Positions 56,552 through 58,805 are shown, counted from the stretch's first letter. The stretch is DNA of 64,000 bases from Escherichia coli (GCF_003334335.1 NZ_QOWQ01000001.1), one strand, 5' to 3'. Notes: generated from the sequence alone by a model not told the origin. Made by a program: numbers and translations.

Positions 56552-56642
56552 AAAGTCCCGGTAGTGGAATGACAGGCAAAGTGGTTTATTTCACTGTGAC
56601 TTGCCAAAGTGATTGGTGTTTTCACAGCTATACCTGGGACTA

Positions 56643-56657
56643 ACAATAAGTGTGCCA
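56643..56657 (-). promoter_or_regulatory. Candidate sigma54 promoter upstream of ygeW
   Basis: Reverse strand reads TGGCAC-ACTTA-TTGT (perfect -24 box; -12 box TTGT instead of TTGC), about 90 nt upstream of the ygeW start, in the ygeW/ygeV divergent region. Confidence 0.3.
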
Positions 56658-57026
56658 GAATTATCCGCGCGGCTGCAAAAGACTAATTTGACGGATAATG
56701 TGTGGGGTTGATCACAAATTGATGCCAGCTTCTGGTTGTTTGTAAAATACGAAAACGTTTGGCTTTTTTTATCGCGTTATTTATTTGCTGCTAAGTATCA
56801 GAAATAAGATAAAGGGGCAGGCTATCTCTCTTCAGTTTGATAAACTCACCGCCGTAATTCTCATATTGATATAGAAATGTGATATCTCTTCCATAATTTC
56901 ATTAGAAAATGATAAAAATCTTATGTTTTTATCAAAGCCAATTTCGCCTGAGTTAATATCATCATGATCTGTGAACCATCAACGTCTTCAATGATCGACT
57001 TTTAAGTAAGTCTGGAAGGTAAAGCT

Positions 57027-58805
57027 ATGGAGCTTGCTACTACGCAGTCAGTATTGATGCAAATTCAACCGACAATTCAGCGTTTTGCCAGAATGCTTGC
57101 CAGCGTTTTGCAGCTTGAGGTTGAGATCGTTGATGAAAACTTGTGTCGCGTTGCCGGAACGGGCGCGTATGGGAAGTTTCTTGGTCGCCAGTTGAGCGGC
57201 AACTCACGCCTGCTCCGCCACGTCCTGGAAACGAAAACTGAAAAAGTTGTGACACAGTCTCGCTTCGATCCCCTTTGCGAAGGTTGCGATAGTAAAGAAA
57301 ATTGCCGCGAAAAAGCATTTCTGGGTACGCCTGTCATTTTACAGGATCGTTGTGTTGGGGTGATAAGTTTGATTGCCGTTACCCACGAGCAACAAGAGCA
57401 TATCAGTGATAATTTACGCGAATTTTCTGATTATGTTCGCCATATATCCACCATTTTTGTTTCGAAACTTCTGGAGGATCAGGGGCCAGGAGATAACATC
57501 AGTAAAATATTTGCGACCATGATCGATAATATGGATCAGGGCGTATTAGTTGTAGATGATGAAAATCGGGTTCAGTTTGTTAATCAGACTGCCTTAAAAA
57601 CACTTGGTGTTGTGCAAAATAATATTATTGGGAAACCTATCCGTTTCAGACCATTAACATTTGAGAGTAATTTTACCCATGGACATATGCAGCATATTGT
57701 TTCATGGGACGATAAAAGTGAATTAATCATTGGTCAATTGCATAACATTCAGGGCCGACAATTATTTTTAATGGCGTTTCACCAATCGCATACCAGTTTT
57801 TCTGTAGCAAATGCACCTGATGAACCGCATATTGAACAATTGGTTGGCGAGTGCCGTGTTATGCGGCAATTAAAACGACTCATTAGCCGTATTGCACCCA
57901 GCCCATCCAGCGTTATGGTGGTTGGTGAAAGCGGCACGGGTAAAGAAGTCGTCGCCCGTGCAATCCATAAGTTGAGCGGAAGACGGAATAAACCCTTTAT
58001 TGCTATCAACTGTGCCGCGATTCCGGAGCAGCTTCTGGAGAGCGAACTGTTCGGTTATGTTAAAGGTGCATTTACTGGCGCTTCTGCCAACGGTAAAACA
58101 GGGTTGATTCAGGCGGCGAATACGGGCACGCTGTTTCTCGATGAAATAGGTGATATGCCATTAATGTTGCAGGCTAAATTACTGCGCGCTATTGAGGCAC
58201 GTGAAATTCTGCCGATTGGTGCCAGTAGCCCAATACAAGTCGACATTCGCATCATTTCTGCAACTAATCAGAATTTGGCCCAGTTCATTGCCGAAGGTAA
58301 ATTCCGCGAAGATCTCTTCTACCGACTTAATGTTATCCCGATAACTCTGCCACCGCTGCGTGAACGTCAGGAAGATATTGAACTATTGGTGCATTACTTT
58401 TTACATCTGCATACCCGTCGTCTGGGATCGGTTTATCCTGGCATTGCTCCCGATGTCGTCGAAATATTGCGTAAGCATCGTTGGCCCGGAAACCTGCGCG
58501 AGTTAAGCAATTTGATGGAATATCTGGTTAACGTGGTTCCTTCAGGTGAAGTTATCGACAGCACGCTATTGCCGCCAAATCTGCTGAATAATGGCACAAC
58601 GGAGCAAAGTGATGTAACAGAGGTCAGTGAGGCGCACCTGTCACTCGATGATGCGGGCGGCACGGCGCTGGAGGAGATGGAAAAGCAAATGATCCGCGAG
58701 GCGCTTTCACGTCATAACAGCAAGAAGCAAGTTGCTGATGAACTGGGCATCGGCATTGCTACGCTCTATCGCAAGATTAAGAAATATGAGTTGTTAAACA
58801 CATAA
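57027..58805 (+). CDS. ygeV: Sigma54-dependent transcriptional activator (bacterial enhancer-binding protein)
   Basis: ORF track 57027..58805, 592 aa; Walker A GESGTGKE, GAFTGA sigma54-contact motif, C-terminal HTH (ADELGIGIATLYRKIKKY). Confidence 0.9.
   Translation: MELATTQSVLMQIQPTIQRFARMLASVLQLEVEIVDENLCRVAGTGAYGKFLGRQLSGNSRLLRHVLETKTEKVVTQSRFDPLCEGCDSKENCREKAFLGTPVILQDRCVGVISLIAVTHEQQEHISDNLREFSDYVRHISTIFVSKLLEDQGPGDNISKIFATMIDNMDQGVLVVDDENRVQFVNQTALKTLGVVQNNIIGKPIRFRPLTFESNFTHGHMQHIVSWDDKSELIIGQLHNIQGRQLFLMAFHQSHTSFSVANAPDEPHIEQLVGECRVMRQLKRLISRIAPSPSSVMVVGESGTGKEVVARAIHKLSGRRNKPFIAINCAAIPEQLLESELFGYVKGAFTGASANGKTGLIQAANTGTLFLDEIGDMPLMLQAKLLRAIEAREILPIGASSPIQVDIRIISATNQNLAQFIAEGKFREDLFYRLNVIPITLPPLRERQEDIELLVHYFLHLHTRRLGSVYPGIAPDVVEILRKHRWPGNLRELSNLMEYLVNVVPSGEVIDSTLLPPNLLNNGTTEQSDVTEVSEAHLSLDDAGGTALEEMEKQMIREALSRHNSKKQVADELGIGIATLYRKIKKYELLNT

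Follow-up and report, generated by a model that had tools for sequence, protein, structure and literature searches.

The closest described counterpart of the system considered here is DioR, a group of clostridial activators with the domain order GAF-PAS-AAA+-HTH_8, to which no function had been assigned at the time of its description (Nie, Dong and Yang 2019, PMC6615313). Its predicted regulon comprises dpaL, ygeW-ygfK-ssnA-ygeY, yqeB, pbuX and xdh, and ATTTATCATAATGATAAGG is an example of its sites given in the supplement of the same paper. Here we analyse the divergent gene pair ygeV and ygeW in a stretch of 64,000 nucleotides of Escherichia coli (GCF_003334335.1, NZ_QOWQ01000001.1), which is referred to below as the window; positions are counted from its first letter. 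The RefSeq labels of the two products are sigma-54-dependent regulator (YgeV) and knotted carbamoyltransferase (YgeW). It is very probable, in our opinion, that ygeW is transcribed from a sigma-54 promoter driven by YgeV, with palindromic enhancers and a CRP-like site, and that this promoter is part of a uric-acid regulon. The coordinates of all features are collected in Table 1.

The promoter has a history in the literature. Table 1 of Bonocora 2015 (PMC4591121) contains, in row OS30, a sigma-54 peak from chromatin immunoprecipitation with sequencing (ChIP-seq), listed with exactly the 17-mer CTGGCACACTTATTGTT and with ygeW at 80 bp, and the adjoining rows contain sites for xdhA (OS29), ygfK (OS31) and ygfT (OS32). 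In genomic SELEX (systematic evolution of ligands by exponential enrichment) the RpoN holoenzyme yielded a peak in the ygeV/ygeW spacer, 53–55% (Shimada 2021), and a sigma-54 promoter was predicted for ygeW in Francke 2011. In Lamoureux 2023 the sigma-54 promoters preceding xdhABC and ygeWXY are called "previously identified", with credit given to Reitzer and Schneider 2001, and a "YgeV iModulon" of purine-catabolic genes is described. According to Iwadate and Kato 2019, as quoted by others, ygeV is required for the formate-dependent consumption of uric acid and for the expression of ygfT. The genes downstream of the promoter constitute the reductive (2,8-dioxopurine) uric-acid pathway of gut bacteria. 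The 17-mer is a real sigma-54 site aimed at ygeW, and YgeV is a sigma-54 enhancer-binding protein; since the promoter, as well as its connection with YgeV, had been published before, this part of the finding is correct yet not new. Added here are the positions of the probable enhancer sites of four E. coli promoters, the correspondence of these sites to those of DioR, the conservation of the non-consensus -12 element, the CRP-like sites and a sensor of the GAF-PAS type with a cysteine triad.

The spacer between the two open reading frames (ORFs) occupies positions 56552–57026. A preliminary description, made from the sequence alone, had called it an AT-rich spacer of 475 bp, and both the length, set by the ORF boundaries, and the composition agree with that: the GC content is 0.37, compared with 0.515 for the whole window. 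The same description reported a TGGCAC-N5-TTGT motif on the ygeW strand at 56643–56657. A pattern search returned it, TGGCACACTTATTGT, as the sole TGGCAC-N5-TTGY in the window. The bare pattern is not significant alone, as 0.53 matches per 64 kb are expected by chance and at least one match was found in 44 of 100 shuffles. Scoring with a sigma-54 weight matrix, suggested earlier as a check, was done with a matrix derived from 33 other intergenic E. coli ChIP-seq sites (Bonocora 2015), the window's own four sites being excluded. The 17-mer has the score of 16.2 bits, the top match in the whole window on both strands, and the median score of the training sites is 16.3. Shuffling of the whole window gave scores of at least 16.2 in 39% of the trials, but when the 475-bp spacer was shuffled and its ygeW strand scored, only 0.14% of the trials did so (P 0.0014); hence it is the location and the orientation of the site that carry the significance.

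For the comparative analysis, orthologous loci were collected from ten further enterobacterial genera (Enterobacter, Citrobacter, Kluyvera, Raoultella, Serratia, Pluralibacter, Intestinirhabdus, Trabulsiella, Atlantibacter, Cedecea), retrieved by a homolog search with the Enterobacter ortholog of YgeV as the query. Together with the E. coli window they form the alignment of 11 genera used throughout. The 17-mer is invariant in this alignment except for two bases of its spacer, whereas the column identity of the intergenic spacers otherwise averages 61%. The GG and the spacing match the consensus TGGCAC-N5-TTGCW, and the -12 element has GT instead of GC. As TGGCACnnTTATTGTTA, including this unusual TTGT element, is invariant in the 11 genera, the T at -12 is a selected feature rather than a sign of decay. 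With the ChIP-seq and SELEX peaks, the matrix score and this invariance, the earlier assignment of a sigma-54-type site directed at ygeW holds. Within the species, the 30-nt core is identical in 4858 of the 5176 complete E. coli genomes matching the 60-nt region, the surrounding 60 nt being at least 99% identical in 1735, and 801 bases around the spacer show 95–100% identity to 5172 complete genomes over at least 80% of the length. The transcription start predicted from the standard -24/-12 geometry fits the 80-bp distance of Bonocora 2015. A sigma-54 promoter for ygeV itself was considered and rejected, as no score on the plus strand of the spacer exceeds 2.65 bits. A scan of the region with the sigma-70 consensus produced 8 matches with 9.7 expected, no excess over chance, and so no promoter was assigned to ygeV.

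Palindromes of the form TATCA-N3-TGATA were seen by eye upstream of all four local sigma-54 sites, those of ygeW, xdhA, ygfK and ygfT. Allowing for at most one mismatch, there are seven in the window compared with 1.2 expected, and five of the seven are in the spacers that contain these four sites. We then applied a DioR matrix made from 12 predicted sites of C. botulinum, C. tetani and C. difficile (Nie 2019 supplement), that is, from clostridial sites only. The three best matches in the window are the palindromes of ygfT, ygfK and ygeW, in this order, and the palindrome of xdhA has rank six. The P values from shuffling of the respective spacers are 0.0007 (ygfT), 0.0013 (ygfK), 0.0033 (ygeW) and 0.019 (xdhA). 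Each of the four palindromes is situated 140–225 bp upstream of the ChIP-seq sigma-54 site.

In the ygeW spacer, the centre of the main palindrome falls at -235 to -238, counted from the predicted start, in 11 of 11 genera, and a 15-mer is identical between it and the ygfT/uacT palindrome. The second site is the second-ranked match in six genera, at -206 to -209, and the top match in Cedecea, at -207. The third one is closest to ygeV, and its possible role is autoregulation of this gene. At xdhA, three of the four genera in which the sigma-54 motif is kept share two sites, located at -128 and -107 relative to the -24 element, and Citrobacter has a weak match at -108 only. The palindrome between ygfT and uacT may serve both divergent genes.

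Some further matches of the two matrices and of the palindrome pattern in the window should be mentioned. A weak sigma-54-like site, CTGGCACTCCACGAGCA (31515–31531, minus strand, 7.9 bits), points toward uacT at 133 bp from the ygfT/uacT palindrome. The palindrome TTTTCTCAATGTGAGAATG (48398–48416, 16.1 bits) is inside the 3' end of yqeC, approximately 160 bp before yqeB. A sigma-54 promoter between this palindrome and yqeB was looked for by the matrix scan and by eye and rejected, as neither produced one; of the two genes, it is yqeB and not yqeC that has a SigL promoter ahead of it in C. difficile. A perfect palindrome, TATCAAGATGATA, is located at 55015–55027, within the coding sequence of dpaL. 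The second-best match of the sigma-54 matrix is CTGTCGCGATTTTTGCA (11946–11962, plus strand, 15.6 bits), with TGTC replacing TGGC. It is situated about 185 bp upstream of an ORF of 364 amino acids (12146–13240), which, going by its size and an adjoining ORF of 957 amino acids, we guess to be gcvT.

The arrangement seen at ygeW is not confined to the enterobacteria. Full-length homologs of YgeV in Sedimentibacter, Ruthenibacterium, C. thailandense and Propionigenium are encoded next to dpaL, ygeW, ygeY, ygfK, yqeA, ssnA or xdh. In each of the four, one to three palindromes TTATCA-N3-TGATAA (or TTCTCA-N3-GAGAA) are present, a strong sigma-54 site comes 100–200 bp after them, and the pathway genes are next; even a genome whose GC content is 60% shows this layout of palindrome and sigma-54 site. 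The order of regulator, palindrome, sigma-54 promoter and uricolytic genes appears, by these predicted sites, to recur in the Firmicutes and Fusobacteria. YgeV was likened to DioR by the architecture, the gene linkage and the sites; over the full length, YgeV has an identity of only 34–38% to the homologs retrieved from Firmicutes other than those of the named DioR proteins (CBO2889, CTC00072 and CD3186). It is the co-occurrence across phyla that provides the strongest argument for YgeV as the activator reading the palindromes, and the assignment of the palindromes to YgeV as its candidate sites is strongly supported by it.

Between the main palindrome and the sigma-54 site of ygeW lies a CRP-like site, in which GTGA...C.CA is invariant in the 11 genera. 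A perfect CRP core is found at ygfK, also between the palindrome and the sigma-54 site. The distances from the start, -77.5 for ygeW and -97.5 for ygfK, differ by 20 bp, that is, by two helical turns, and so the two sites are in phase. Overall, the window has five CRP-like sites with 2.2 expected, a number reached in 5 of 100 shuffles. According to a 2025 paper, the degradation of uric acid is glucose-repressed in the wild type, and constitutive promoters replacing the "native Crp-binding site" region of the spacer relieve the repression. On visual inspection of the 11-genus alignment, no scan being made, no conserved IHF site was seen between the enhancer and the promoter. Since the CRP-like site occupies the usual place of IHF, no conserved IHF match was seen there and glucose repression has been published, we propose CRP as the bending co-factor of the promoter, a proposal that has, as we see it, even chances of being right.

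Several points weigh against a ygeW promoter driven by YgeV through these palindromes. The main palindrome is more distant, at -235, than most characterised enhancers. The palindromes are AT-rich, so that another protein could bind them, and they resemble the GATAAT hexamers of the Fur box. The sites from which the DioR matrix was trained are computational predictions themselves. The T at -12 departs from the consensus, which costs 4.3 bits, and it is present in one of the 33 training sites, that of pspA. The occupancy of OS30 by sigma-54 in vivo is low, FAT 3 (Bonocora 2015, PMC4591121). The YgeV iModulon does not include ygeV itself and is seldom active (Lamoureux 2023). Finally, the accessible literature contains neither a mapped start of ygeW, nor ygeW expression in rpoN or ygeV mutants, nor a footprint of YgeV.

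The low ChIP-seq score and the non-consensus -12 element would be expected of a site that is occupied by sigma-54 but is poised or vestigial, ygeW being transcribed mainly from a CRP-controlled sigma-70 promoter. It is argued in Bonocora 2015 (PMC4591121) that many sigma-54 sites are not promoters of the downstream gene, and both CRP-like sites and glucose repression are present here. However, the 17-mer with its TTGT is invariant in a spacer that otherwise is much more variable, the enhancer-type palindrome keeps a fixed distance from it in the 11 genera, the promoter and the palindrome precede orthologous genes in the Firmicutes and Fusobacteria in the same layout, and the sigma-70 matches do not exceed the chance level. 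We thus consider such a vestigial role very improbable.

It might also be that the palindromes are read by a different regulator, either Fur-like or a global protein recognizing AT boxes, as their composition and their likeness to the Fur hexamers would allow, and that YgeV binds elsewhere in the spacer. The latter indeed has a further conserved block, at 56874–56898, with no assigned factor. Yet in three phyla, and in the 60%-GC genome among others, the palindromes travel together with the regulator gene and the sigma-54 promoters, and each of the three top matches of the DioR matrix in the window lies upstream of a sigma-54 site, the genes concerned being co-expressed as one set. We give little credence to this alternative, and in what follows YgeV is treated as the probable reader of the palindromes.

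The YgeV protein, also named IsrR, has all the sequence signatures of a sigma-54 activator. The preliminary description had noted the core of a sigma-54 activator with GESGTGKE and GAFTGA, and the motif and Pfam searches confirm it. The Pfam matches are Sigma54_activat PF00158 (residues 272–439, E 2e-70), AAA_lid_14 (445–528), HTH_8 (548–587, E 3e-13) and PAS (162–205). In addition to Walker A and the GAFTGA loop (Table 1), YgeV has Walker B LFLDEIG at 369–375, ESELFG and sensor I, the arginine-finger region FREDLFYRL at 426–434 and WPGNLREL of the sensor II region at 486–493. Judged by these signatures, YgeV is a complete bacterial enhancer-binding protein (bEBP).

The AlphaFold model of residues 1–267 (mean predicted local distance difference test score, pLDDT, 76.7) consists of two alpha/beta domains. 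Foldseek matches of this model include the N-terminal GAF-PAS part of DhaR, SpoVT, CodY and GAF domains of phosphodiesterases. The search of solved structures with the sensor sequence yielded PAS matches only and none for residues 1–150. In Kumar 2022 (mBio), YgeV was renamed "IsrR" and classed as an orphan response regulator. This label is unsupported by the sequence: the 25 of 29 Pfam matches listed for YgeV include no receiver domain (Response_reg), and its N-terminal part is modelled as GAF followed by PAS.

Few residues of the sensor stay invariant when 19 homologs from three phyla are aligned; A43-G44-T45, C84, C87, C93 and E95 are among them. A family search with residues 1–160 of YgeV against 1.84 billion representatives produced at least 612 clusters at 50% identity. 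This sensor domain family is found mostly in bEBPs of anaerobes. The best 150 matches include 86 full-length proteins, of which 84 have the CxxCx5C motif at the same place and 71 have the glutamate in addition. The spacing of the cysteines equals that of the cluster ligands in FNR. This suggests that the motif may form an iron-sulphur (Fe-S) or metal centre as in FNR or OrpR, a feature undescribed for YgeV. Because the motif is family-wide, it is unlikely to recognise a purine. The input related to purines, if any, is more likely to come through the PAS domain or other residues of the sensor, and the cysteine triad points to an additional or different input to YgeV.

As for the signal itself, the orthologous clusters rank with the genes most strongly induced by uric acid in three members of the Firmicutes/Actinobacteria and in E. 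bolteae. Since these clusters are inducible by uric acid in the Firmicutes and other gut bacteria, sensing of a purine-derived signal by YgeV is plausible only. A different possibility is that the input is not purine-derived at all, being either indole, as the name IsrR has it, or redox or metal sensed by the cysteine triad, so that the specificity for the pathway would come from the positions of the sites only. Indole strongly induces transcription of ygeV, and the isrR mutant is altered in LEE expression (LEE, locus of enterocyte effacement; Kumar 2022), but these data concern the expression of ygeV and not the binding of a ligand, and that study assumes a response regulator, of which no receiver domain was found. 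The occurrence of the cysteines in nearly the whole family, rather than specifically with the purine pathway, and the precedent of OrpR, a bEBP sensing through Fe-S (PMC8359166), are in favour of a redox or metal input. On the other hand, induction of the orthologous clusters by uric acid needs some urate-linked input, for which the adjacent activator is the obvious candidate. We therefore regard an input entirely unrelated to purines as unlikely, and prefer a signal derived from purines.

Taken together, these observations are consistent with the following mechanism. The spacer would be a divergent control region, in which RNA polymerase with sigma-54 binds CTGGCACACTTATTGTT as a closed complex and starts the transcription of ygeW near 56631. 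YgeV, as the presumed enterobacterial ortholog of DioR, would bind the palindromes TATCA-N3-TGA(T/G)A approximately 235, 206 and 333 bp upstream. Once its sensor is switched on, ATP hydrolysis by YgeV and the GAFTGA loop would open the promoter. CRP, at about -77.5 in the position usual for IHF, could well bend the DNA, and this site would confer the sensitivity to glucose. The activating signal is most likely urate or an intermediate of the pathway, possibly with gating by redox. As the same layout is seen at xdhA, ygfK and ygfT, YgeV is likely to be the regulator of the whole cluster for the anaerobic (reductive) degradation of uric acid. A more detailed model, which we offer as a speculation with a rather small chance of being correct, is a two-input switch of the YgeV/DioR type: the cysteine motif, as an Fe-S or metal centre labile to oxygen or redox, would license the activity only in anaerobic, reducing conditions, urate or an intermediate such as 2,8-dioxopurine would be read by the PAS domain or by other parts of the sensor, and CRP, not IHF, would play the architectural role at these sigma-54 promoters. 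If true, the sensor domain family would represent a large unrecognised class of Fe-S-gated sigma-54 activators.

The genes ygeW, dpaL, ygeY, hyuA and yqeA are co-directional, with intergenic gaps of 40–57 bp. The unit is named ygeWXY in Lamoureux 2023 and the ygeW-arcC operon in Kasahara 2022. The divergent ygeV and the five-gene unit from ygeW to the carbamate kinase gene (yqeA/arcC) are retained in the same order in 10 of the 10 other genera. The opposite flank of ygeV differs among the genera, and in 6 of these 10 xdhCBA is not beside ygeV. Thus the conserved core of the locus is ygeV and the ygeW-to-carbamate-kinase unit only. Read-through from ygeW to yqeA is plausible, and two internal hairpins, in the ygeW/dpaL and ygeY/hyuA gaps, may split or attenuate the transcript. 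The conserved block of 24 nt ahead of the start codon of ygeW may reflect translational control or a target of a small RNA. A riboswitch or another structured leader of ygeW was rejected: there is no match in Rfam, the consensus fold has only -1.9 kcal/mol, and no covariation is seen. The Rfam matches found elsewhere in the window are unrelated: Sib RNA (5848–5998), 6S RNA (6647–6830), naRNA4 (20341–20418) and a tRNA (63756–63826).

In one strain, E. coli CFS3273 (NZ_CP026932.2), the spacer contains IS1, which separates the third palindrome from ygeV and is inserted approximately 50 bp upstream of the ATG of this gene. By its position, this insertion should uncouple ygeV from its native promoter region.

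Table 1. Features of the ygeV/ygeW locus and of the related promoters in the window (positions counted from the first letter of the window; distances given relative to the predicted ygeW start unless another promoter is named)
Feature	Positions	Strand	Basis and remarks
Sigma-54 promoter of ygeW, CTGGCACACTTATTGTT	56642–56658	-	GG at 56656/56655, GT at 56644/56643; about 80 nt upstream of ygeW
Predicted transcription start of ygeW	56631	-	Standard -24/-12 geometry; leader about 80 nt
CRP-like site, TGTGGGGTTGATCACA	56701–56716		Centred at about -77.5; one mismatch to TGTGA-N6-TCACA
Second, weaker candidate site or half-site, GTTTATCAAACTG	56827–56845		Centred at about -206; TTATCA and TG invariant in 11 genera
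Main candidate upstream activating sequence, DioR/YgeV-type palindrome, CTATATCAATATGAGAATT (ygeW strand)	56856–56874		Centred at -235; 18.85 bits, third in the window
Conserved block AAnTATG-N8-ATCACAtTT beside the main palindrome	56874–56898		TATCA half-site and CRP-like half-sites, 8-bp spacing
Third palindrome-like site, TATCATCATGATC	56957–56969		About -333 to -335; 58–70 bp upstream of the ygeV ATG; its GATA is the same in all 11 genera
Conserved leader block, GCCTGTCATTCCACTACCGGGACT	56554–56577	-	Column identity about 0.9 in 11 genera; includes the Shine-Dalgarno region
ygeV (isrR) coding sequence, 592 amino acids	57027–58805	+	ORF, Pfam, RefSeq; GAF-like sensor, PAS, AAA+ sigma-54 activator, Fis-type HTH
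GAF-like sensor domain, residues about 9–150	57051–57476	+	AlphaFold model, Foldseek, weak Pfam GAF (E 0.03)
Cysteine motif C84-x2-C87-x5-C93-x-E95 in the sensor	57276–57311	+	Invariant in 19 sequences from three phyla
PAS domain, residues about 157–252	57495–57782	+	Pfam PAS_8/PAS; sequence matches to WalK and CitA PAS; secondary structure of the model
Walker A GESGTGKE	57924–57947	+	Residues 300–307
GAFTGA loop, sigma-54 contact	58065–58082	+	Residues 347–352
C-terminal Fis-type HTH (HTH_8), putative reader of TATCA-N3-TGATA palindromes	58668–58787	+	Pfam; specificity presumed
ygeW, knotted carbamoyltransferase	55361–56551	-	ORF and RefSeq; first gene downstream of the promoter
dpaL	54107–55303	-	ORF, RefSeq
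ygeY	52838–54049	-	ORF, RefSeq
hyuA	51400–52785	-	ORF, RefSeq
yqeA/arcC	50420–51352	-	ORF, RefSeq
GC-rich hairpin with a weak T tail, ygeW/dpaL gap	55333–55354	-	Follows ygeW
Terminator-like hairpin with a TTTTT tail, ygeY/hyuA gap	52801–52820	-	Possible partial terminator
Hairpin terminator past yqeA	50208–50233	-	Likely end of the transcription unit
xdhA sigma-54 site, CTGGCGTAAATCTTGCC	62563–62579	-	Matrix; OS29; kept in 4 genera
xdhA upstream palindrome, ATTTATCACATTGATTTTA	62695–62713		Second site 21 bp nearer the promoter
ygfK sigma-54 site, GTGGTGCGATTGTTGCT	46826–46842	-	Matrix; OS31
Perfect CRP core at ygfK, TGTGAATGAACTCACA	46905–46920		About -97.5 of the ygfK promoter, between the palindrome and the sigma-54 site
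ygfK upstream palindrome, CATTATCATAATGATAAGG	47008–47026		17 of 19 positions identical to a C. botulinum DioR site
ygfT sigma-54 site, TATGCCCGTTTATTGCA	31819–31835	+	Matrix; OS32
ygfT/uacT upstream palindrome	31638–31656		Best match of the DioR matrix in the window

The ygeW-yqeA unit and its neighbours encode the anaerobic uric-acid pathway of gut bacteria, which has a bearing on host urate and gout, and strains have already been engineered by replacement of the ygeV-ygeW spacer. The native control logic, made up of the sigma-54 promoter, the palindromes attributed to YgeV, the CRP-like sites and the sensor, would, once known, account for the silence of the pathway under most laboratory conditions and serve as a guide for such engineering.

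Individual elements of this logic have parallels in other sigma-54 systems. The pspA promoter of E. coli uses IHF, and an activator without a sensor domain. This sigma-54 promoter, activated by PspF, shares the TTGT -12 element with ygeW (TTGGCACGCAAATTGTA, experimentally confirmed) and is the sole other case among the sites of the Bonocora 2015 intergenic table covered here, but its occupancy is FAT 21 compared with FAT 3 at ygeW. In the organization of the locus, ygeW is similar to prpBCDE: in both cases a sigma-54 catabolic operon is divergent from the gene of its activator, and positive control by CRP, predicted at ygeW, reportedly acts at the prpBCDE sigma-54 promoter as catabolite control. 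At prp, IHF is used as well, and the PrpR_N sensor of PrpR binds 2-methylcitrate.

DhaR, a protein of the bEBP type in E. coli, is controlled by binding of DhaK and DhaL and acts with sigma-70. Its N-terminal GAF-PAS module (PDB 4lrx) is the best solved two-domain match to the model of YgeV residues 1–267, the identity being 14%. OrpR of Desulfovibrio vulgaris (PMC8359166) resembles YgeV as a sigma-54 activator of an anaerobic pathway, with three conserved cysteines and an acidic residue in the sensor; in OrpR these residues bind a redox-sensitive [4Fe-4S] cluster. The two proteins differ in the placement of the motif and in the spacing of the cysteines: the cysteines C52, C61 and C65 of OrpR belong to a PAS domain, whereas CxxCx5CxE of YgeV is in the GAF-like domain.

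The most complete correspondence is with DioR. The domain order GAF-PAS-AAA+(GAFTGA)-HTH_8 is common to DioR and YgeV, the predicted targets of both include dpaL, ygeW, ygfK, ssnA, ygeY, yqeB and xdh genes, and both systems have the TTATCA-N3-TGATAA palindrome 150–300 bp ahead of the sigma-54 promoter. Unlike the clostridial sites, those of E. coli have TGAGA half-sites beside TGATA ones, CRP-like sites are found in E. coli between the enhancer and the promoter, and the ygeV gene is divergent from ygeW instead of being located upstream of dpaL.

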